Assembly (NCBI GenBank): GCA_021513695.1
Contig: CP084166.1
Coordinates: 1-64,000, forward strand
From: Candidatus Heimdallarchaeum aukensis
GTDB taxonomy: Archaea > Asgardarchaeota > Heimdallarchaeia > Heimdallarchaeales > Heimdallarchaeaceae
DNA: 64,000 bases
Direction of reading: 5' to 3'
The notes under the pieces were generated by a model. That model saw only the letters and a program-made list of their open reading frames with translations. It did no database searches and was not told where the DNA came from. Made by a program: the position numbers and the translations under genes. Of the stretch, positions 201 through 35,147 are shown one piece after another; the first letter of the stretch is position 1; each line of letters begins with the position of its first letter.

Positions 201-686
201 CTATCTTACTCCCATATTCCAAGCTAATCTTTTTGCAGTTACTCTTTCCCATTTGTTCAAGGCGCTTTTTGCTGAAATAGTTTCTGTCAAGAACGTATGC
301 GGGAAATCTTTTATGAATTTAATTAAATCTTCTTTACTTTCTACTTTTTCTAAAAGGGCAGGAGTGATGAAGAATGTTACTGAAAAACCTGGTTCTGGTT
401 CTGACATTACTATTCCTGTTTCTTTAAATAGTGTTTTGCAAATTCGCTTTAACAACATATCATCAAATGGATCTTTTATTTCTATTATTAGTGATATTAG
501 GCTAGAATTTTTTGTTTTTTCTATTAACCCATTTTGTAGAAAATATTGTTTTAAGTCCATTTCTTGACATTCTTTACAAACTACACATGGGTAATTTATT
601 CCTTTCATTGGACAAATAAAGTTGGAAACATTAAAAGCTTCTCTTATTTTTCTCTCATCATCCCAAAATTCGCTCTGTGAAGACAT
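201..686 (-). CDS. hypothetical Cys-rich protein (CPxxxxxxxCxxCxxC cluster, possible metal-binding)
   Basis: 161-aa ORF. Cys cluster 'CPMKGINYPCVVCKEC'. No recognisable enzymatic motif. Confidence 0.3.
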   Translation of the reverse strand: MSSQSEFWDDERKIREAFNVSNFICPMKGINYPCVVCKECQEMDLKQYFLQNGLIEKTKNSSLISLIIEIKDPFDDMLLKRICKTLFKETGIVMSEPEPGFSVTFFITPALLEKVESKEDLIKFIKDFPHTFLTETISAKSALNKWERVTAKRLAWNMGVR

Positions 687-3528: not shown

Positions 3529-5187
3529 ATGCAAAATGTCCCTAAAATTTTAAGTATTTCTGCTCTAGTAGCTAATATTCTTAATATATTTTTTCTAATT
3601 ATTTCGTTTTTATTTACATATATTGATCTTAATGATGAAGTTCTTAGTTTTCTTAACTCTTTTTACTTTTTTATAATTCTTTATGTTATTAGTGTGATTA
3701 TTTTTGCAAATGAAAGTTGGGAAGTTCTTTACAATTCTCCAAAAATTGACATTTTTCACGAATATGTAAATGAGAAAGAAACAAAATCTTTTCTTTTATT
3801 TGGAATTTTAGCTATAATAACAAGTTTTTTGTCATTCAGTCTTGGAAAACTACGCTTTGAATTTAATTTTTCCCAAAATATAGTTATTTTTCTATCTGGA
3901 ATTTTGATCATTCTTTTATTAGTTTTTGGGTTAAATTTTGCAAAAAAAGCTAATTCTGGACAAGAAACAATTTACAAATCAGTACCTATAAAAGATTATA
4001 ATATACTTACCTCTGGATATAAAAATTATATGTTCTTTTTTTTGTTTACACTTTTATACAATCCAGAAGTTTTTTCTATTGTAGCAGGAACTCTGTTTTT
4101 GATTAGGATCATTAACTATTTTTTAAAAAATAAGAAAGATGAAAAAAACTCCGAGAATAAAAGTGAAACCAAGAAACGTTTCTTTCAAAAAATTAAACAA
4201 ATATTTATAATAAAAGAAAAAGCTAAACAGGAAACGTTTTTATTTGCGCCAAAAAAGCAAAAAATATATACATATTATATCCAAATGGGTATTATCTTTT
4301 ACTTTATTTATTTGCATTTTATTCATTGGTTATTGCTAAGTGTAACAAGTAATTTTGCGGATTATTCATTTTATAATAAGATATTAGGTGTTGTTATTGC
4401 GATTTTTCTAATTCTGATGAATCATCCTTGGAACAAAGGTTTTGTCCAATTTATTATTCTGGGGATTGAAATTGTTGGAATTATTGCTATTACTCTGCTT
4501 TACTTATATATTCCTGCAAATATTCATTTAGGAACATTAATCTGGAAGTTTATAAGCAATGAATATTTTGGTGTTCAATATGATAGGTTAATTACAATTA
4601 ATATTTTTAATAATCCACTCCAAATCTCATTTTTTGGATTTGGAATCTATATCATTAATGTTTTACTTGCTGTTAATTTGGGGATTATCGGAAGTTTGGT
4701 TCTTAAAAAAGATTTTATTTTTAATTCTGTTCCACAAACGAAGAGCCCAAAAAATCATGCAATTTCTATGATGGAAACCCATGTCTGGCTAAAACGATTG
4801 AATCTTATCGTAATCACTATTTTTGAAGGTGGAATCTTCAGTTTATCTCTGATTGCTTATTATGAAATTCAACCAGATTTTAAACTTATCGGATTTATTT
4901 TGGCATTTATAACTATATATGTCGTTTTTTTAGTTATCATTCTTAGCTACTATGAAGAATATAAAGTGATTGAGAAAATTCGAACAAGATTAAGAAAAAT
5001 TTATTCGCTTGATGTTTTTCGAGTAGATGACTTAATTGAGAGTGCATTCGAGATAAATATGCAACAATATCATGCTAGTAAAATCAAAAATAAAGAATAT
5101 AAACAAAAGGCAAAAAAAGATTGTGAAACTGCTGTAATACTGTTGGTCGTTTTGGTAATTGGATTGCTTATTTACAGTTCGATGTAA
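3529..5187 (+). CDS. polytopic membrane protein (hypothetical)
   Basis: 552 aa with many predicted TM helices and no catalytic motif recognised. Confidence 0.4.
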   Translation: MQNVPKILSISALVANILNIFFLIISFLFTYIDLNDEVLSFLNSFYFFIILYVISVIIFANESWEVLYNSPKIDIFHEYVNEKETKSFLLFGILAIITSFLSFSLGKLRFEFNFSQNIVIFLSGILIILLLVFGLNFAKKANSGQETIYKSVPIKDYNILTSGYKNYMFFFLFTLLYNPEVFSIVAGTLFLIRIINYFLKNKKDEKNSENKSETKKRFFQKIKQIFIIKEKAKQETFLFAPKKQKIYTYYIQMGIIFYFIYLHFIHWLLLSVTSNFADYSFYNKILGVVIAIFLILMNHPWNKGFVQFIILGIEIVGIIAITLLYLYIPANIHLGTLIWKFISNEYFGVQYDRLITINIFNNPLQISFFGFGIYIINVLLAVNLGIIGSLVLKKDFIFNSVPQTKSPKNHAISMMETHVWLKRLNLIVITIFEGGIFSLSLIAYYEIQPDFKLIGFILAFITIYVVFLVIILSYYEEYKVIEKIRTRLRKIYSLDVFRVDDLIESAFEINMQQYHASKIKNKEYKQKAKKDCETAVILLVVLVIGLLIYSSM

Positions 5188-5518
5188 ATTTTTAACTTAT
5201 CATACTTTTTCTTTCTATCCGAGATCTACATGCAAAAATTTTTTCCTTCTAGTTACCATATTGAAGAATTAAAGGCCGATAAGTTTCTTATTACTACCAG
5301 AAAAAACTTATGCTTGTAAAATTACAACCTTAAATATAAAGGAGATTAATTTAAATACAAGATTACATATATTTCACAAGGTTAATCAAGGGGGTGTAAA
5401 TATCCAAGAAAAACTTGATTTTGATAAAATACCTGTAGTTGATAGCATTCAATGGAAAACTTTTGGAATAACTTACAAAGATCAAACAATTATAGGGCTT
5501 GGTTTATATGATCACGGA

Positions 5519-6577
5519 TTGGTTAAATTTCCAAGCGATATAACTTCATTACAAAATCTGCAAACGTTACAGATTAATGAAAATCAACTAGAATCTCTTC
5601 CAGAATCTATTGGTGAACTAAAAAATTTAGCAGAGTTATATTTAAGACAAAATAATTTGAAATCTCTTCCAGAATCTATTGGGTATTTAACTGAACTCCA
5701 AGTTTTGGAATTGACTACAAATAAACTCACATCTTTACCTGAAACTATTGGTAATTTGAAAAATTTGAAAGAATTAATAATTTGCGGAAATAATTTAACC
5801 TCTCTTCCTGAATCAATAGGTGATTTATCTGAACTAGAAGTCTTGAACTTATATAATAATAAGTTAACATCTTTGCCTGAAAGTATTGGTAACTTAAAAA
5901 AGTTAAAGGAACTAAGTGTAAACAAAAACAATTTAACTTCTCTACCTAAGACAATAGGAAATTTGACAAATTTAGAAATCTTAGAATTAACTTTTAACAA
6001 TATTGAAGTTTTGCCAGACAGTATAGGAGAACTAAGTAGGCTGCAAAAGCTTTTTTTAGACTATAATTCTCTTCGTAATTTACCTGACGACATTAAAAAC
6101 TTAAGAAATATTCAACTCCTTCATCTTGCGCGTAATAACTTAACTACTTTTCCAGAATCAATCTGCAAATTAAATAGTTTAACATTATTGAACCTAGCAG
6201 GAAATAAATTATCATTGTTACCTGAATGTATTGGTAATTTAAGCAAATTGAAGACATTAGATCTTAAAAGTAATCAATTAAGTGAATTACCAAATAGTAT
6301 AGATAAGCTAACAAGTCTTCAAGTACTTGATTTAGGTAACAATAAATTCGAATACTTACCAGAGAGAATATGTTATATTGACACTTTACAGATTTTGAAA
6401 CTTTATGGCAATCAATTAAAGGATTTACCAGGAAATATAATGGAATTAAAAAACCTTCATTATTTAGATATTAGTGATAGTGATTTGTATTCTTTTTCTC
6501 CTGCAGTGAAAGAATGGTTGAAAGAATTTGATGAAAAAGCTACATTATACGTTTACTCAAGAGGAAAAAGTGCGTAA
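5519..6577 (+). CDS. leucine-rich repeat (LRR) protein, eukaryote-like 23-residue repeats
   Basis: About 14 tandem repeats of 'LxxLxxLxLxxNxLxSLPESIGNLxNL'. The track start is TTG at 5519. The reading frame is open upstream to a stop at 5333 with no in-frame ATG or GTG, so the true start is uncertain. Confidence 0.8.
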   Translation: MVKFPSDITSLQNLQTLQINENQLESLPESIGELKNLAELYLRQNNLKSLPESIGYLTELQVLELTTNKLTSLPETIGNLKNLKELIICGNNLTSLPESIGDLSELEVLNLYNNKLTSLPESIGNLKKLKELSVNKNNLTSLPKTIGNLTNLEILELTFNNIEVLPDSIGELSRLQKLFLDYNSLRNLPDDIKNLRNIQLLHLARNNLTTFPESICKLNSLTLLNLAGNKLSLLPECIGNLSKLKTLDLKSNQLSELPNSIDKLTSLQVLDLGNNKFEYLPERICYIDTLQILKLYGNQLKDLPGNIMELKNLHYLDISDSDLYSFSPAVKEWLKEFDEKATLYVYSRGKSA

Positions 6578-6886
6578 CTTTGTCAATAAAAAATAGAAAG
6601 GATGTTAAACTAAAAAATGCAAATAGAGGAAAAGTTGATTCATATACTAATTAAAACAAATTTACTGTTTTCAATAATCACTGATGTACTATAGAATTAG
6701 AAGCAAAAAAACTACTTTCTTAAGCTCTCTAAATTTTTTTGACAATATCCTCTTTCGGTAAAATTATTTAGTCTTGAAATCCTTATTTTTGCTCTTTTTA
6801 GAAGCATTTTTTCTTTTTTCTCTTAAACTTATTTAAGAATTTTATTTAATAATAATACTTATTAGAGTCTACGAAATTTCCAAGTT

Positions 6887-8530: not shown

Positions 8531-11119
8531 ATGGAAAAACCTCTCTCTATCATAATCACAGATATAGATTTTTTTATAGAAGAATCAACAGAAGAGAGAA
8601 ATGAGCCAATTATTAGAATTAAAGGGAGAGATAAGAAAGGAAAAGTTATTGTTATACATGCCAAAGGATTCCTTCCCTATTTTTATGTAAAAGATTTACC
8701 CCAAACTCAGAGTACAATTCAGAATTTGCTCCAAGTTAAGCCTGAATTTGGAGAATGGATTGTAAGAACTGAACATGTCTTAAAACGGACTTATTATCAG
8801 TTAAGACCTGTTTATTTGTACAAGATTCTGGGAAATAATCCCTGGAAAATTAGAGGATTTAGTAAATTCCTCATGGATAAAGGAATAAAATGCTATGAAA
8901 ACGATGTTCCTTTTGTTTCAAGGTTCTTAATTGATACAGGATTACGAGCTTTAAACACTGTGATAGTGTCAGAGTATGAATTCTTAAAAGAAGAAAATGA
9001 AATTAAATATTATATTACTCATTATTCAAATATTTCTCCTTCTGAAGAAGAAACAGAGTATTTTCCTTTAATTGTTGCTTTTAAAATATTTATAGACTTG
9101 TCAGATAAAGGAGAAGGAGAAAAGAAAACACGGACTACTTACTTGGAAGAAGGGAGTAGAAGGATAATAGGAGCTAGTGTTACTTGGGGGCGAAAAGGAG
9201 AAATAAAAGGTAAGAAGCATTTCATTTTAGAAAATGATTCAGATGAAGAAGAAGAGAAACTTATTCTTGATTTCTGGGATTTTATTCACTCGTTATCTCC
9301 TGATGTGTTAGTTAGTTTTAAAGGAAACAGCATAGATCTCGCTTATATTATAAAGCGAATGAACTACTTTGAAATCCCTCTAAATGTTTGTAGCCCATAT
9401 CCTAATGGAAAAGTAAAGGAGCCTACTACATTTTATGGTTATAGGATCTCTGGTTACATGGTTTATGATTTAGTTTCCAGATCAAGGTGGATGAGATTAA
9501 AAACAGGGCAATCCAGATTAACTGACCTTGTTGCTGCCTATTTAGATGAGAAAAGAGAGGTTACTTCTAGTGATATAAACAATTTATGGATCGATGCCAA
9601 AATTAACAAAGATTCTCAAGCTAATCTGAAACTTGAAAAAACAATTGATTCTGATAGTACTTTTGTATATAAGCTCTTTGTAGTTCTAGGTTTTGATGAG
9701 TGGTTAGAGGTTATGCGAATTGTAGGTATTCAACCTTCAAAAGGTATTTATTCTACAGCTCGTCATCTTGGGGAATTTGAACTGATGAGAGTTATACATA
9801 AAAATAACACAATAATCCCGAGCCTTCCTACTCGTAAAGAAAAAGAAAGAAGAAGAGTCAATCGACCATTGGCTGAAGGAGGTTTCGTCATGGAACCCAA
9901 AGGAACGCTGCATAGAGCTGTTTTAATAGCTGATTTTACAAGTATGTATCCTAGTGTAATAGTCACTCATAATATTGGAGGAGAAAGCTTTAAGGGTCTA
10001 ACTTATAGTTATTATGAACGTTTTTACGATAAACCTGAAACAGCATTAAGAGTAATGGAAAAAAAATTATTATCTGAACGTAAAGAACTAAAAAAGGAAA
10101 TAAAAGAATTAGAATTGTTTATACGCTCTTTTCCTGAAAAGAAAGCTGAGATTGAGAATAAACTTAGAAAAATGAAAATAAAATCCAGTGCTTTAAAGGT
10201 AATAGCCAACTCCTTATACGGGAGTCATAATTACATAGGAAGTAGATTTTATAACACTGACATTTCAAATGCAATTACACACTTTTCTAGAGTTTATATT
10301 GAGAAAGTAGCTAAACTTGCTCTAGATTTTAGCGGAGGAAAAGTGGAAATTGTGTATGGTGATACCGATAGTGCTTTTCTCAAACTTTCTGATGAACAAA
10401 GCGTTTTTACAGCTTACGACAAAGTAAAAAGTGGAGAACAATTTAGTCTTGATTTTGTTCCTGAAGCAAAAGATTTACTCTATTATATAAACTCCAAACT
10501 TCCTGAAGATATGAGTCTTGAATTTGTTGATCTGGCATTGAGAATCGTTTTTGCCAAAGAAACGAAGAAAAGGTATAGTTATGTTAGTGTAGTAACAGGA
10601 AATTTGGAAATAATAGGTTTTGAAGCTATACGTTCAGATTTTAGTTCTTTCGCAAAACAAGTTCAAACACTCGCTTTAGAGAAACTATTACGAGAAGGGA
10701 GCTATGAAAAAGCAAAAAGAGCAGTGATTAATTTCTGTAAAGAATTTCAAAAGAAAAAAGGAAAAGAGCTACTACAACTTGTAACAATATATGGACCTGT
10801 TAGAAAGCACCCTTCAGAATATAAAAGCAAAACCCCAGCAATAGCTGCTTTACTTGAATATTCTAGAGTTAAACAGATTTCAATAGAAGAGTTGCAGAAA
10901 GAATATCAACGATTTCCTTATGTAATTGTTAAGGGGCCTGATGACAAAAACATCTACAAAAGGGCTAGGCATCCTTCTCTTATTAAGTCAGTAAATGAAA
11001 TTGATAAGAACTATTATATTGAGCAAGCTTTACGTTCTATTCAAAGATTAGGTGTAGATATAAAGCCTTCAGAAATCGCTTTAGATGCAGTTTCTATATT
11101 AGATTTTTCACTAGATTAG
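8531..11119 (+). CDS. polB: family-B DNA polymerase (PolB)
   Basis: Polymerase motifs A 'DFTSMYPSVI', B 'KVIANSLYG' and C 'YGDTDS' are present. N-terminal 'YENDVPFVSRFLIDTGL' aligns with archaeal PolB. The Exo I position reads 'AFKIFIDL' rather than 'AFDIET'. Confidence 0.9.
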   Translation: MEKPLSIIITDIDFFIEESTEERNEPIIRIKGRDKKGKVIVIHAKGFLPYFYVKDLPQTQSTIQNLLQVKPEFGEWIVRTEHVLKRTYYQLRPVYLYKILGNNPWKIRGFSKFLMDKGIKCYENDVPFVSRFLIDTGLRALNTVIVSEYEFLKEENEIKYYITHYSNISPSEEETEYFPLIVAFKIFIDLSDKGEGEKKTRTTYLEEGSRRIIGASVTWGRKGEIKGKKHFILENDSDEEEEKLILDFWDFIHSLSPDVLVSFKGNSIDLAYIIKRMNYFEIPLNVCSPYPNGKVKEPTTFYGYRISGYMVYDLVSRSRWMRLKTGQSRLTDLVAAYLDEKREVTSSDINNLWIDAKINKDSQANLKLEKTIDSDSTFVYKLFVVLGFDEWLEVMRIVGIQPSKGIYSTARHLGEFELMRVIHKNNTIIPSLPTRKEKERRRVNRPLAEGGFVMEPKGTLHRAVLIADFTSMYPSVIVTHNIGGESFKGLTYSYYERFYDKPETALRVMEKKLLSERKELKKEIKELELFIRSFPEKKAEIENKLRKMKIKSSALKVIANSLYGSHNYIGSRFYNTDISNAITHFSRVYIEKVAKLALDFSGGKVEIVYGDTDSAFLKLSDEQSVFTAYDKVKSGEQFSLDFVPEAKDLLYYINSKLPEDMSLEFVDLALRIVFAKETKKRYSYVSVVTGNLEIIGFEAIRSDFSSFAKQVQTLALEKLLREGSYEKAKRAVINFCKEFQKKKGKELLQLVTIYGPVRKHPSEYKSKTPAIAALLEYSRVKQISIEELQKEYQRFPYVIVKGPDDKNIYKRARHPSLIKSVNEIDKNYYIEQALRSIQRLGVDIKPSEIALDAVSILDFSLD

Positions 11120-26342: not shown

Positions 26343-27800
26343 ATGGTGGAAGACGTCGTCAAAACCTTGAAAGTGAGAATAAAGAAGGAGGTATTGACGA
26401 CGAGGAAGAAGGAAAGGTTAAGGAGAATAACGGGGAGAGACACGAGGATAATAGAGAAGTATGTGAGAATAATACATCACAACAGAAGAAAAATATGTGC
26501 TAAAACTAAAAAAGGGAAAATAAGAGTCCATAGAGGAAAACTAGATGAACTGACGCTAACTACTTCAAAAGTTAAAGAAGAAGAGAGAAGAAAGACTGTT
26601 CCTCACGATCTGAAGAAAATGTTCCCTTATTGTTCTCACAATGAATTCCAAGAATGTAGAGATATAGCCGTACAATTATATGAACAAGGGTATAGACCTA
26701 ACAATACTCGTCCTCCAATAAAGAGAGTTAGAAAACAACTAATTAATGCAAAGAGGTTTGTTCTCGTTCATCTGCCAAAAGAGAAGAATAACACTCTCAC
26801 TCGTTGGTGGGTGGGGATAAGAGACTCGTTAGATACGTGGAGAAGAAACACACCTTATCATCAGAAACTATGGTTACCTTTAGAGATGAGCACTTTCCAC
26901 CAGAAAGAGTTAAAGAAAGGAAGAATAAAAAGTTTAGAACTAAGATATAAACGTTCTACACATGAGTGGTGGGTGTATTTCCAACTAAAAGTCATTCCTC
27001 CTCCTTCTTTTTATCTCACAAGTCAAGGAGATAATTCTTCTTCTCTTCCCCCAGCTGTGCTGGGAATAGATCTAGGGATAAGCATTCCTGCTGCAGGAGT
27101 GCTTCTAACCCCTAAAAAGAAATTAACAAGTGAAGAAATAAAATTCTGGTATACCAAACAGTGGAATAAAGTTAATCACCGATATAAACTCAAACTTTCC
27201 CGTCTTCAGAGGAAAGCGGCTTTAAACGACCAGTCGGGTAAAAAACACCAGATTTACCGTTTTCTTGGTCTTCTCCGAAGAAGATATAAAAACGTTAAAC
27301 GAGCCTATATTTACCAATTTGTAAACGACATCGTGCAGACGATAGAGACTTATGCACAAGTGTATGACCTTTTTGTCGTTGTAGGTTATCCTAAACACAT
27401 TCGCGAGGAGAAAGGAAAGAGAAAAAGTACTCATAAGTTTCGTAGAAAACTTCATCAGTGGAACTTTTCTCTTGTTCTTGCCCTTCTTCGTCGAGCATTG
27501 ATACTTCGAGGATTTGAACCTCACCAAATATTAACGATAGAAGAAAGAGGGACATCCTCTCACTGTACTCGTTGCGGGAGGAAAGTTATCCGTCCCGTTA
27601 GAGGTTTAGTCCATTGCTCTTCTTGCAATTACACTTTCCACTCTGACCTCACAGGAGCAATGAATATCGCTCGTAAGTTCCTTGGTGCTCTTTTCCGTCC
27701 TCAAGGAAACACTATCACTGATTACCTCACTGGTCATAAATTCGGTCTCACTCATTTCACTGTTTGCCGAGGGCTCAGCCATTGGTTGCAGCCCCATTAG
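26343..27800 (+). CDS. tnpB: TnpB (IS200/IS605 OrfB, RuvC-like RNA-guided nuclease family)
   Basis: RuvC-I 'VLGIDLGIS'. C-terminal zinc finger 'CTRCGRK...CSSCNYTFHSDLTGAMNIARKF' (CxxC...CxxC followed by the RuvC-III-like HSD...N.A motif). Confidence 0.85.
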   Translation: MVEDVVKTLKVRIKKEVLTTRKKERLRRITGRDTRIIEKYVRIIHHNRRKICAKTKKGKIRVHRGKLDELTLTTSKVKEEERRKTVPHDLKKMFPYCSHNEFQECRDIAVQLYEQGYRPNNTRPPIKRVRKQLINAKRFVLVHLPKEKNNTLTRWWVGIRDSLDTWRRNTPYHQKLWLPLEMSTFHQKELKKGRIKSLELRYKRSTHEWWVYFQLKVIPPPSFYLTSQGDNSSSLPPAVLGIDLGISIPAAGVLLTPKKKLTSEEIKFWYTKQWNKVNHRYKLKLSRLQRKAALNDQSGKKHQIYRFLGLLRRRYKNVKRAYIYQFVNDIVQTIETYAQVYDLFVVVGYPKHIREEKGKRKSTHKFRRKLHQWNFSLVLALLRRALILRGFEPHQILTIEERGTSSHCTRCGRKVIRPVRGLVHCSSCNYTFHSDLTGAMNIARKFLGALFRPQGNTITDYLTGHKFGLTHFTVCRGLSHWLQPH

Positions 27801-28801
27801 ACAAAAAAGAACTTAACTAATTCTCTCCTCTTGTGTTAGAGTTAGTTTTCCTTCTTTCTTTTTTGTCTCTCGTGGAGTGAAGAAAGAAAGAAAAACTTTC
27901 TTTTCTTCTTTATGATTCCCACGATTCGTGTATGATGTCTGTCTCAACCCCTTCATAGCATTGTATGGCTTGGTTGAGTTCAAGAGATTAAACTCCTTCT
28001 GTTTTTTCTCTTGCAAGACAGAGTGCGAAAAACTTTACGTAAGAAAGTAAATCATGTTGAATGAGCAAAGATTATATAATGTGTATGACCTTTTTGTCGT
28101 TGTAGGTTATCCTAAACACATTCGCGAGGAGAAAGGAAAGAGAAAAAGTACTCATAAGTTTCGTAGAAAACTTCATCAGTGGAACTTTTCTCTTGTTCTT
28201 GCCCTTCTTCGTCGAGCATTGATACTTCGAGGATTTGAACCTCACCAAATATTAACGATAGAAGAAAGAGGGACATCCTCTCACTGTACTCGTTGCGGGA
28301 GGAAAGTTATCCGTCCCGTTAGAGGTTTAGTCCATTGCTCTTCTTGCAATTACACTTTCCACTCTGACCTCACAGGAGCAATGAATATCGCTCGTAAGTT
28401 CCTTGGTGCTCTTTTCCGTCCTCAAGGAAACACTATCACTGATTACCTCACTGGTCATAAATTCGGTCTCACTCATTTCACTGTTTGCCGAGGGCTCAGC
28501 CATTGGTTGCAGCCCCATTAGACAAAAAAGAACTTAACTAATTCTCTCCTCTTGTGTTAGAGTTAGTTTTCCTTCTTTCTTTTTTGTCTCTCGTGGAGTG
28601 AAGAAAGAAAGAAAAACTTTCTTTTCTTCTTTATGATTCCCACGATTCGTGTATGATGTCTGTCTCAACCCCTTCATAGCATTGTATGGCTTGGTTGAGT
28701 TCAAGAGATTAAACTCCTTCTGTTTTTTCTCTTGCAAGACAGAGTGCGAAAAACTTTACGTAAGAAAGTAAATCATGTTGAATGAGCAAAGATTATATAA
28801 T
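27360..28801 (+). repeat. perfect head-to-tail tandem duplication, 2 x 721 bp (27360..28080 and 28081..28801)
   Basis: Both reverse-strand ORF pairs (27606..27797 with 28327..28518, and 27813..28016 with 28534..28737) are identical at offset 721. I compared the unit ends base by base at the three junctions. Confidence 0.9.
28081..28521 (+). pseudogene. truncated tnpB 3' fragment (C-terminal ~147 codons) created by the tandem duplication
   Basis: Translation is identical to TnpB from 'VYDLFVVVGYPKH...' to the stop. It lacks the N-terminal two-thirds, including RuvC-I. Confidence 0.7.
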
Positions 28802-31152: not shown

Positions 31153-32172
31153 CTTAAGAAGCATGTCCAAAAATTCTTTTTCACCTACTAAACGGTCCGA
31201 AGGAGTAAAAGGTAGTTGTAACAGAGGAGAGAACTGTACAAGGTAGAGAGGATGGTGGAGGGTAAACGATCAAGGATTGGGGGAAGAGAGAGTTTGAGGA
31301 GACCAAAGACGTGTTCGATACTACTACGATACTCGGGGTGATAATTATGATAAACGATACAGACCAGGGCAGAGACGATGAGCTTGAATTATTGGTTCGA
31401 GGGGAGGAGGAGAGGGATAACGAGCATTACTTTTTGGGGGAATAACAGGAAAAAAAGAATGTTGGCTAAGAAGACCGACGATATTTTCTGTCCAGTAGGC
31501 ACAGTCTCCATAAAATCGCAGGAAAGGTCTCAAGAGTGCAGAAGGAAGTTTCTGCCAGAGCAAACCGAAGACTTTACTATCGTGAGTGTTACTAGCAGAA
31601 TGAGCAAGAGAGACTATAGCTCGAGAGGGTAAACCAACTATAAGGTGTATCTTCCAGAAAAGTTTGGAGGTTTTCTTTAGTCCTCCTCTTGCCCACTTGA
31701 GAAAACGCCAAACAGAAGCTTGACGAATTTTAAACCCTGAACTATCCACCGCCATAGCTTTCAACCCTTTTTTCCTTACTATTTCCCTACCTAAATCTAT
31801 TATCCACCGCTCCAGCAACTCACTTTCTGTCGCTCTCCACACTGCATGAAAAGTAGATTTGGAAGGAATCTTCTTCATCCACCCCTCTTCTATCAAAAAA
31901 GCGCATAAAGACAACTTTTCCTCTAACTTCCTCCAAGCAATTCCTTCTATTCTCGCAATAATTGCTAAAGCCAGTATCACCCACCTTTCTGCTATTCTTT
32001 TTCTCCCTCTCTTACTTTCTCTCGGTTCCTCTTTCACCAGTTTCTTAAGGAAAGGTTCATTAATGCTTATGAATTCTCTTGCTTTGTGGGGGTCTATGAT
32101 CTGAAAGTAAGCCATACTTCCGACATAAACCCCCACATTAATAAAAATTAATTTTTGGGCATGCTTCTTAAG
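31153..32172 (-). mobile_element. IS5/IS4-like insertion sequence (~1.0 kb) with 13-bp terminal inverted repeats
   Basis: 'cttaagaagcatg' (31153..31165) and its reverse complement 'catgcttcttaag' (32160..32172) flank a DDE transposase gene. The region has a purine-rich tract and higher GC than the neighbouring sequence. Confidence 0.55.
31345..32136 (-). CDS. DDE transposase, IS4/IS5 family
   Basis: Three DDE-like segments: 'AVDSSGF', 'NTHDSKVF', 'YGDCAY'. Basic N-terminal part. Confidence 0.65.
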   Translation of the reverse strand: MGVYVGSMAYFQIIDPHKAREFISINEPFLKKLVKEEPRESKRGRKRIAERWVILALAIIARIEGIAWRKLEEKLSLCAFLIEEGWMKKIPSKSTFHAVWRATESELLERWIIDLGREIVRKKGLKAMAVDSSGFKIRQASVWRFLKWARGGLKKTSKLFWKIHLIVGLPSRAIVSLAHSASNTHDSKVFGLLWQKLPSALLRPFLRFYGDCAYWTENIVGLLSQHSFFPVIPPKSNARYPSPPPLEPIIQAHRLCPGLYRLS

Positions 32173-32258
32173 TTGATTAATGATCTATCTTAAAATTATT
32201 CTTTTTAATTATCTAATTAATAGAAAATATTAATATATAAGGTGGAAATAAACTGAAT

Positions 32259-35147
32259 ATGGCTATCAAAACCAAAAAAAACTCCACAAAGAAGAATTTA
32301 ATTACTGTTTTTGTAATTTTCTTGGTTTGTTTTAGTTTTATAAATTGTTTAACCTCTAACTTGTTAACTGTAGTAGCTTCAGGAAGCGGAGATTTTCCAC
32401 CTCCAAGTAGTGGAGAATGGACAATATCTCAAGAAACAATAGTTAATTCTGAAGTTATTTATATTAATGATTCAGTTTCAATAGAAAGTGGAGGATCTTT
32501 AGTATTAGAAAATTGTGTAATAGAAATGAATGGTAATGAAGATGACAAAGCTAATTTTATAGTTAATAATAATGGTAATCTTACAATAATTAATTCTAAA
32601 ATAGAAGCTTTTTCTGATTATTCATGGTACATCGAAGCAGAAGAAGGAGCTTCACTTAAAATTACTGACTCAACCCTAATAAACTTCAAAGGAAGCCAAT
32701 ATACATCAGTAATTACACTCTATAACAATTATTCTGAAATTACAAACAATAGTATCTCAAACTTCAAATATAAAGCCATTTTTGCTAGATTTACTAGTCA
32801 TCATAATAATATTACAAAAAACAAAATAAGTGGAGGGCTTGTTGGTTTTGAAGTAGTCGATGGATGGTACAACGAGATAAATGATAATGAGTTTCACTTA
32901 CTATCACAATTTGCGATTGCTATTAATAATGGTAGTTTTTCAAATATTCTTCGAAATAAAATATTTAATGTTTCTTCTATCGCAATCAATTTCCAAAAAT
33001 CAAAGAATGTTTTATGCAATAACAACAATATTTCTACGTCTAAAACTGCAATTGAGTGCTATTCAATCTATAATAGTAGTATCTCTAATAATATGTTCTC
33101 TAATATTCATGATTATTCAATTAGAGTATATACAGGGAATAATGTCACAATATCAAACAATTCAATTGATAATAGCGATTTAGCAAAAGGCATTATTAAT
33201 TCAGCTATTAGCCTGAGTGCGTGTAATAATTTTTCTATTAATGAAAATTCAATAATAAATACCCCAAGAACAGCTCTAGAAATTTTAAGTTCAACAAATT
33301 GTAGAATTTTTAACAATGTTTTTTCCATTAATAATTACTCTATCTTTATCTCTAGTTCTAATTATCTTGAAATTAAAAACAATTTACTATCTTATTCGAA
33401 TGATTATTCTATGTGGTTTATTAAATCAGATTTTTCATTGTTTGAAAACAACACAGTTAATTTTGGTCAATCTTGTGGAATTAGACTAAGTAGCTGTAAC
33501 AATAATTCTATATTAAGGAACATCATATTCAATAATAGTAAATATGGTATCGATATTTCTTCAAGTAATAATAATACGATACTGGAAAATGTTTTTGTTT
33601 TAAACAATAATGGTTCTATTCAAGCTTATGATAATGGATTAAATAATAGCTGGTATAGTAATTTAGAATCTGTTGGTAATTTTTGGAGTGATAATAATGG
33701 ATCATCTTTCTATTTAATAAATGGTGAATCAGGTTCTATGGATATTTTTGCGAATTATTCTGATTACGATAAAGATTTTATTCCTGATTATTATGAACTT
33801 GAAGTTGGTTTAGATATAACAATAAATGATGCTAATGACGACTTAGATGGGGATGGTTTGTCAAACTTCGAAGAATTTACTCTGGGTACTTTTCCTAATG
33901 ATCCTGATAGCGATGATGATGGTTTAATTGATTCAGTAGAAGTAGACTTGAAAACTGATCCTATGTCTAATGATACAGACAATGACAACCTTATTGATGG
34001 GTTAGAAATTCAATATGGATGTGACCCCTTTTCAAATGATACAGACATGGATGGACTAGATGACTGGTCAGAGATATTCTACTACTTCACTGACCCTTTA
34101 GATTATGACACTGATGGTGATGGGTTATCTGACTCTGATGAAGTTTATGCATATAATACAGACCCATTGGACGCTGACACTGATGATGATGGCTTAAATG
34201 ATGTAACTGAAGTACTAGGTTATGGTACTGATCCCAATGATGCAGATACAGATGGAGATGGATTAACAGATTACGAAGAAGTGATTGAATATTTTACTGA
34301 TCCTACGGATGTTGATACTGATGGTGATGGTTTAACAGATTATGAAGAGGTAAAATATTATGGAACAAATCCTAGGAAAGCTGACACTGATGGTGATGGA
34401 ATTTCTGACAATGATGAATTAATTCAAGGAAAAGATCCATTAGTCAATGAGAAACAAAGAAATGTAAGGATAATAATTATTGTATTTTCTGCTTTAGGTT
34501 CTGGTATACTGTTTATAGGATTAACTGTGCTGTTGATACTATTCCTGATAGAAAAGAACAAAAATAAAGAACAAGCATTGTTATCCCTTTTCAAGAAAAA
34601 AATTAGAGAACTAGAAAAGAAAATTAATATTATTGAAACAACAAAAATTGAAGAACTTATGTCTAAGACAGAAGAAAGAGCGAAAATTGATACTTTTTTC
34701 AATGAATTCCTTGAGGTTTTAGTGGACTTCGCAACATATTTTCTGGAAAATGAGGAATTAATTGAGAATAAAAAATGGTTACAAGCCAAAAAGAAGCTAA
34801 ATGAAGAATTAGATAAAGTGAGAGATTGGATTAATAAAAATCTACGTGCTCTAAAGGAATATGATATTTATGACAAACTAGTAAACCAGATAGATGGATT
34901 AGAAAATAAAGAAGAAATTAAGATTAGCAAGTTAGAAGCTTATAAGGAGATTGAAATTGCAAAAGGTATTTTGAGAGAATTCAAAAAAGTAGTAGAGAAA
35001 ACTTCTCCTTTTATCAACAAATTTTCCTATTCTACTTTAACTAAATATTGGGAGATTACAACTGAACTTATATTTGCTAATATGACACAGCTAGAAAAAA
35101 TTGAGGAAAAAATAAAAGATCTACTGGAAAGAGAGAAAACTCTATAA
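32259..35147 (+). CDS. large type-I membrane surface protein: signal peptide, parallel beta-helix (PbH1/NosD-like) repeats, thrombospondin-type-3-like Ca-binding repeats, TM helix, ~210-aa cytoplasmic coiled-coil tail
   Basis: N-terminal signal '[14 protein letters not shown]'. Repeated 'N-x-I-x-N-N' beta-helix rungs. About 10 '[12 protein letters not shown]'-type repeats. TM '[27 protein letters not shown]'. C-terminal K/E-rich heptads. Confidence 0.7.

Follow-up and report, generated by a model that had tools for sequence, protein, structure and literature searches.

Introduction

The solved structures closest to the protein described here are the Leptospira leucine-rich repeat (LRR) proteins, followed by SHOC2, LRRD1 and the LRR domain of the Chlorobium tepidum Roco protein. 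The Leptospira LIC LRR proteins are secreted or surface-associated, and the plant-specific (PS) LRR class, whose repeats are of 24 residues with LSGxIPxxLGxL, typically forms extracellular receptor ectodomains. As to how translation begins, near-cognate starts are widespread in eukaryotes, Asgard initiation factors resemble those of eukaryotes, and the AUU start of Escherichia coli infC is conserved and autoregulatory. AUC initiation with Met in E. coli reaches 0.1–3% of the AUG level (10.1101/063800), the accepted archaeal start codons are AUG, GUG and UUG only (PMC7531240), and archaeal aIF1 has been reported to select against starts that are not canonical (PMC6237735). No archaeal precedent for a functional near-cognate start was found in the literature that we searched.

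We analysed the first 64,000 nt of the Candidatus Heimdallarchaeum aukensis contig CP084166.1 (forward strand), hereafter the window, which contains a stand-alone LRR gene whose first canonical in-frame start codon is a TTG at 5519. We find an ATG-to-ATC substitution behind a mis-called start, in an otherwise ordinary Asgard LRR gene. With a probability of about 0.8, the true start is at 5402 with a real ATC, which gives a coding region of 5402–6577 (391 codons).

The locus and its genomic context

The window has a G+C content of about 30% and carries an archaeal marker, a family-B DNA polymerase (PolB), at 8531–11119; tRNA and Rfam scans of the window returned nothing. The LRR gene is flanked by a 552-aa multi-pass membrane protein without Pfam matches and by a NUDIX hydrolase, and no conserved operon partner was found on comparing the window with Ca. 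Heimdallarchaeum endolithica PR6, the sister species. In PR6 the promoter-plus-gene cassette of 5338–6594 is inverted and relocated relative to the NUDIX/PolB block (6208–4954 of the PR6 locus, L002), and about 3.7 kb of extra DNA lies between it and the upstream membrane-protein gene. Inverted repeats were looked for at the edges of the 5338–6594 cassette, none of them convincing.

An IS with a DDE_Tnp_1 transposase at 31159–32166 has a counterpart at L002 6222–7225, directly upstream of the promoter of the PR6 LRR ortholog, and the two copies are 97% identical, compared with about 85% for the two long aligned segments of the genomes. The pattern points to recent activity or exchange of the IS and to rearrangement associated with it. 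Adjoining the IS, a 962-aa protein (32259–35147, plus strand) with a hydrophobic N-terminus, a right-handed beta-helix (NosD-like) and bacterial TSP3 repeats is probably secreted or surface-located. A TnpB/Cas12f-like ORF (485 aa, PF07282) was found at 26343–28521 (plus strand), in a region whose G+C content of about 37% is above that of the rest of the window. A direct repeat of at least 300 nt in this region (27360–27659 and 28081–28380, 100% identical, 721-nt spacing) yields a truncated TnpB-like ORF of 155 aa. The 161-aa ORF at 204–686 (minus strand) matches ARPC4 (PF05856, E=2.9e-9), an Asgard eukaryotic-signature protein, and has a clear Shine-Dalgarno (SD) motif, TAAAGGAGTAACAAATG.

Gene starts elsewhere in the window were also affected by the way in which ORFs are picked. 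For at least two neighbouring genes, the ORF starts TTG 7366 and, on the minus strand, GTG 8376 are probably false, since SD motifs support ATG 7384 and ATG 8364 instead, the former being backed by the start of the PR6 ortholog and the latter by a public gene call of 126 aa. The longest-ORF rule thus over-extends genes in this AT-rich Heimdallarchaeum genome.

The LRR array and the class of its repeats

The LRR ORF is closed by TAA 6575–6577, and its frame is open from the codon after the in-frame TAA at 5270–5272, which amounts to 434 codons. Of these, 82 lie ahead of TTG 5519 and include no ATG, GTG or TTG, as a sequence-only reading of this DNA had already noticed for ATG and GTG; the same reading had set the upstream stop at 5333, where the TAA at 5331–5333 proves to be out of frame. 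The 434-aa extended ORF matches the Pfam families LRR_14 (3e-67), LRR_8 (4e-44), LRR_4 (5e-35) and LRR_1 (5e-27) and no Pfam domain outside the LRR families; in particular, no Roc, Ras or COR match was obtained, and the ORF ends after the LRR C-cap. No hydrophobic N-terminus, signal peptide or TM segment is visible in the LRR protein, in agreement with what had been said of it.

As read from the translation and from the spacing of the AF2 strands, the repeat period is 23 residues with an LPxxIGxL variable segment. The earlier count of about fourteen repeats of 23 residues described a real array, which the AF2 strands extend to 15. By these sequence features, the repeats are of the 23-residue SHOC2/Ras-group type, which is common in bacteria too; the protein shows the LRR-profile motifs, the 23-residue period and, in the AF2 prediction, the capped solenoid fold of that group. 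Two other assignments were considered and rejected. A Roco protein would carry a Roc GTPase and a COR domain in the polypeptide, and this one has neither. The PS class differs in its period (24 rather than 23 residues) and its motif (LSGxIPxxLGxL rather than LxxLPxxIGxL), and here there is neither a signal peptide nor a TM segment; plant LRR-RK matches in the phmmer search reflect generic LRR signal. The label "eukaryote-type, plant and Roco-like" given from the sequence was therefore loose: the LRR fold is indeed similar to that of the Roco LRR domain, but neither the 24-residue plant type nor Roc/COR applies.

The AF2 model of the 391-aa product has a pLDDT of 95.2 and a pTM of 0.92. An N-terminal cap module (5402–5485, plus strand; residues 1–28, QEKLDFDKIPVVDSIQWKTFGITYKDQ), conserved in many LRR proteins, contains the first strand of a capping beta-hairpin, which in the model is made of residues 21–26 and 29–35, caps the solenoid and gives the first LRR strand; residues 11–40 have a pLDDT of 96–97. 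The fifteen 23-residue repeats follow at 5486–6475 (plus strand; residues 29–358), as supported by Pfam, Foldseek and the AF2 strands, which number 15 at 23-residue spacing, from E29-35 to E354-358. The C-terminal cap, together with the stop codon, occupies 6476–6577 (plus strand; residues 359–391), consists of two helices and a strand (H359-364, H367-379, E381-385) and is conserved in PR6.

Homologs and a sister-species ortholog point to a start at 5402

A homolog search with the whole protein was driven by the LRRs and gave matches at paralog level only (30–52% identity), many of them from Asgard MAGs, with both the protein itself and the ortholog absent; the named top homologs are "leucine-rich repeat domain-containing protein" entries of Asgard MAGs. 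The upstream part was compared with these matches by BLAST and MAFFT. Many homologs share a pre-LRR module of the form M..KKYxVKPEQAKVLEELEKxxGKSIPxVxEIx..FGVKIxxxNVxGLGLxxxxLxxLPESIG, and the window sequence, QEKLDFDKIPVVDSIQWKTFGITYKDQTIIGLGLYDHG followed from the TTG position by LVKFPSD, fits this module across the TTG. The same module occurs in distant homologs and in locus L005, with a Met at or upstream of the equivalent of 5402. A profile search against 1.84 billion representatives, whose result was dominated by multi-repeat LRR scores, showed the module to be widespread: thousands of LRR proteins carry it, at internal positions as well as at the N-terminus.

The ortholog was obtained by searching the neighbouring PolB against one genome per species, which gave one relative, PR6 (CP084167.1), at 92% amino acid identity of PolB. 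The DNA of the window and of PR6 is about 85% identical over two long aligned segments, and the published ANI of H. aukensis and H. endolithica is 88% (PMC8813620). The PR6 ortholog is an LRR ORF of 391 aa (L002 4970–6145, minus strand), which starts with ATG and begins MQEKLDFDKMPVVDSIQHKTFGITYK. All 391 codons align with the window gene without a gap, at 81% amino acid identity, so that the N-termini (window ATCCAAGAAAAA, PR6 ATGCAAGAAAAA) are matched residue by residue and ATG-CAA-GAA-AAA in PR6 faces ATC-CAA-GAA-AAA in the window. The initiation codon position is thereby set at 5402–5404 (plus strand), where the window and the Logan assembly (L001) have ATC and the PR6 ortholog has ATG, a third-position substitution. 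A 5′ truncation, which had been offered as one explanation of the missing start, is excluded by the equal length of 391 codons in the ortholog and the absence of gaps. Compared with most paralogs, both Heimdallarchaeum orthologs begin about 18 residues later and are without the first helix.

Upstream of this position the two genomes part. In PR6 the ATG is preceded by an in-frame TAA, 8 codons before it, and the leaders of the window and PR6 differ by a 1-nt indel; the stretch upstream of 5402 is therefore non-coding. The protein-like character once traced back to 5333 is supported by homology only from 5402 onward, the PR6 stop and the indel lying upstream. Downstream of 5402, dN/dS between the window and PR6 is 0.26 for the whole gene, 0.36 for codons 2–39 (5405–5518) and 0.25 downstream of the TTG. 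The value for codons 2–39 indicates that the 39 residues missing from the public gene model evolved as coding sequence, and the whole ORF, codons 2–39 included, is by these ratios under purifying selection.

The codon at 5402 is an exception in its surroundings. Across the collinear 14-kb neighbourhood, canonical start codons are found at the shared site in 14/14 ortholog pairs, from which the LRR gene departs. ATG was probably the ancestral state, judged by parsimony, by the need for a start codon and by one orthologous genome. A further ortholog that could polarise ATG versus ATC was not found in a protein-seeded metagenome scan, whose 59 loci were all at paralog level (57% identity or less), and metagenome_contigs contained no exact match to a 26-nt DNA pattern spanning the start.

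Promoter and Shine-Dalgarno signals ahead of 5402

DNA homology between the window and PR6 starts at 5338 and takes in the signals expected of a gene beginning at 5402. An archaeal TATA box, TTTAAATA, lies at 5350–5357 (plus strand), 52 nt before codon 5402, and matches TTTAWATA perfectly; it is conserved in PR6 as part of the longer conserved sequence TTATTTAAATACAA. TATA-like motifs are also seen at −36 to −57 ahead of other genes in the window that are led by an SD. Transcription would then start near 5380 and leave a 5′ UTR of about 20 nt.

Within this leader, the SD motif AGGGGGTG (5389–5396, plus strand) pairs without a break over 8 nt, with a single G-U among the pairs, to the consensus archaeal anti-SD, 5′-AUCACCUCCU-3′ (PMC7531240). 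A 5-nt spacer, TAAAT, separates it from 5402, so that the ATC is preceded by a ribosome-positioning signal at the proper distance, as a near-cognate start would require. Anti-SD matches of at least 8 nt occur at 0.03% of window positions; the match at 5389–5396 is the longest in the window, and before any other picked gene start the longest is 7 (46 long ORFs). SD use in the window is common, with GGAG/GGTG-type motifs 4–14 nt before the first start in 18/46 long ORFs (about 40%) versus a background of 6.7%; CTGGGGTGAAAAATG and TAAAGGTGAAAAAATG are clear examples. The SD of PR6, AAGGAG, at about 6151–6158 of L002, pairs over 5 nt only. The pairing of 8 nt with ATC in the window versus 5 nt with ATG in PR6 could be compensation for a weak codon. 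Two further combinations of an SD with a non-canonical codon, at 32253 and 25954 (minus strand), were examined and rejected, an ordinary ATG being nearby in both.

A second purine-rich motif, AAGGAG, lies at 5339–5344 (plus strand), 5 nt before the TATA box, and has AAAGAG at the same distance in PR6. The sequence-only reading had noted it at 5338; it adjoins the TATA box in what would be a BRE-like rather than an SD position, and was rejected as a ribosome-binding site. Taken together with the leader comparison, the "open frame" of 5336–5401 would be promoter and 5′ UTR. A non-canonical start had been among the earlier suggestions, and this was right in kind, the codon being ATC, and wrong in place, the site being 5402 and not the region of 5336.

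Alternative starts and the reality of the ATC

The public gene calls start at TTG 5519–5521 (plus strand; Leu40), a codon inside repeat 1, and yield a product of 352 aa. If this were the real start, the similarity upstream would be a non-functional relic. In its favour, no canonical start codon precedes it in the frame, public gene callers chose it, and UUG is an accepted archaeal start codon (PMC7531240). Against this, no SD precedes it (TTTATATGATCACGG), while 5402 has both a strong SD and a TATA box at fitting positions; the aligned PR6 codon is CTA; and codons 2–39 are under purifying selection as is the rest of the gene. The structural consequence is also unfavourable. Leu40 comes after strand E29-35, the first LRR strand of the AF2 model, and a 352-aa product would therefore be predicted to lack the N-cap hairpin and strand 1, with the solenoid core exposed. 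Homologs starting at the equivalent of 5519, which the sequence-only reading had named as the finding that would speak against upstream coding, were not seen, as the ortholog starts 39 codons upstream. We therefore regard TTG 5519 as an improbable origin of the protein and probably not the biological start; it is a fallback of gene callers, which default to this internal TTG because ATC stands in place of ATG. The two starts predict different N-terminal peptides: initiation at the TTG should give (M)VKFPSDITSLQNLQTLQINENQLESLPESIGELK, and initiation at ATC 5402 should give (M)QEKLDFDKIPVVDSIQWK.

A start at 5402 could also be an ordinary one, with ATG in the organism and the ATC arising as a sequencing, assembly or consensus artefact or as a minority allele. 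A single-base difference at one decisive position is how a miscall is expected to look, and all 14 neighbouring genes keep canonical starts. Nevertheless, the Logan re-assembly of SRR15988954, made with a different assembler, agrees with the window at all of 11,059 bases (100% identity), ATC included, although the same library, and hence the same reads, may underlie both assemblies. The H. aukensis genome was assembled with SPAdes from Illumina PE150 reads, Nanopore being used for scaffolding only (PMC8813620), and substitution errors are rare in such a consensus. A base-call or sequencing artefact at the ATC is accordingly unlikely, as is the sequencing error formerly suggested, which the identity over 11 kb and the Illumina PE150 source also speak against; in all, we consider it quite improbable that the gene has an ordinary ATG.

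Coding that extends beyond 5402 to a non-canonical start near 5336–5345 (ATA or ATT), behind the AAGGAG, is the least credible of these explanations: the frame is open from 5273, distant homologs have about 18–20 extra residues before EKxxGKxIP, which project to about 5336–5351, and AAGGAG resembles an SD, but the PR6 leader carries the in-frame stop and the frame-breaking indel, the stretch itself (translation IKEINLNTRLHIFHK) includes the conserved TATA box along with the SD that serves 5402, AAGGAG is only 0–6 nt from ATT 5345 and TTA 5351, which is too close, with no canonical codon after it, and a random stretch of the same composition would stay open for these 43 codons with a chance of about 2.4%. 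A frameshifted N-terminus in either of the other two frames was rejected as well, as these have only short ORFs (for example, one of 29 aa at 5231–5320) unlike the N-termini of homologs. The upstream gene for the 552-aa membrane protein was likewise rejected as a fusion partner or a source of read-through, since it is in a different frame, with stops at 5185–5187 and 5270–5272.

Fate of the ATC allele

A start at 5402 with a real ATC leaves the question of whether the gene is still expressed. A stop codon could arise in the ORF through 228 different single-nucleotide changes, and under neutral drift the probability that the ORF is still open would be less than 0.05 once about 0.04 substitutions per site had accumulated; the lineage divergence is about 0.19 substitutions per site (half of the dS of 0.386). 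Since the ORF is intact despite these many routes to a stop, neutral decay can account for at most about 20% of the lineage divergence. On this calculation, either the ATG-to-ATC change should be recent, no older than about a fifth of the time since the species split, or the gene should still be translated and selected.

The observations speak to both sides. As expected of a start-loss pseudogene, a canonical start is present in the ortholog and lacking here, in a gapless alignment. Further disabling lesions were not found: the 391 codons contain no stop or indel, and the dN/dS of 0.26 gives no sign of relaxed selection, so that a start loss would be compatible with the intact ORF only if very recent. 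Conservation of the unusual codon in orthologs, which would speak for a near-cognate start, was not seen in the only ortholog found, that of PR6, which has ATG.

In the mechanism that we propose, the TATA box at 5350–5357 would drive the gene's own transcript with a short 5′ UTR, the SD at 5389–5396 would set the ribosome on codon 5402, and with AUC in the P site Met-tRNAi would initiate weakly. The LRR gene would then be a strong hypomorph, at a level of about 0.1–3% of AUG by analogy with E. coli. The protein, if made, would be a cytoplasmic stand-alone LRR scaffold with an N-cap hairpin, 15 repeats and a C-cap, offering a surface for protein-protein interaction like other LRR solenoids.

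That the allele is a young start-loss on its way to becoming a pseudogene has, in our estimate, somewhat less than an even chance. A residual full-length protein that is functional and still selected for is a possibility that we put forward tentatively. It seems doubtful that this Heimdall-group archaeon uses AUC as a working initiation codon, with the 8-bp SD pairing partly compensating and setting a deliberately low expression.

Discussion

The public 352-aa model that starts at the TTG is probably wrong, as it removes 39 conserved N-cap residues, and the correct CDS would be 5402–6577. With the start at 5402, H. aukensis and its sister species hold a natural AUG/AUC pair in the same gene, with the same promoter and SD context, in which the stringency of start-codon choice in an Asgard archaeon can be tested. 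Should the AUC allele yield protein, this would be a case of near-cognate initiation on an SD-led archaeal mRNA, and a working AUC would be a natural instance of it in the nearest archaeal relatives of eukaryotes. If no protein is made, the allele would instead be a dated example of dispensable Asgard LRR family members beginning to decay.

Among known systems, the codon invites comparison with E. coli infC and pcnB, whose AUU starts likewise place an AUH codon at the initiation position at the proper SD distance. They differ from the present case in that the sole available LRR ortholog has ATG, so that the unusual codon is not conserved there.

As to the protein, Foldseek matches to the LIC LRR proteins, SHOC2 and the Roco LRR all have a probability of 1.00. 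The C. tepidum Roco LRR domain (PDB 5IL7) is similar in LRR type and fold (TM 0.74), and some database homologs (P0017, P0020, P0090) bear Roc/Ras and COR domains, whereas the LRR gene has neither. SHOC2 and the Ras group (PDB 7T7A, 7TVF; E about 3e-68) share the repeat class and the horseshoe scaffold, and are likewise intracellular with no catalytic domain. The overall TM for SHOC2 is only about 0.56, its curvature and length differing from those of the archaeal protein, its repeats number about 20, and at its N-terminus a disordered region, absent from the archaeal protein, aids the binding of MRAS and PP1C. Closest are Leptospira interrogans LIC11098, LIC10831 and LIC12759 (PDB 4U08, 4U06, 4U09), which are similar in size and, like it, stand-alone arrays built of 23-residue LxxLxLxxNxLxxLPxxIGxLxxL repeats (Foldseek TM 0.78–0.83, about 40% identity; phmmer E 1e-82 to 3e-61). 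These are bacterial proteins from a pathogen, however, while the archaeal protein is without a signal peptide and has a different N-cap module. That module leads back to the Asgard archaea themselves, in whose LRR expansion (Promethearchaeota, Heimdallarchaeota, Thorarchaeota and others) several members share the EKxxGKxIP...FG...NVxGLGL cap. The LRR protein of H. aukensis is otherwise an ordinary member of this expansion and unremarkable for an Asgard genome; what sets the window copy apart is the ATC at its start.
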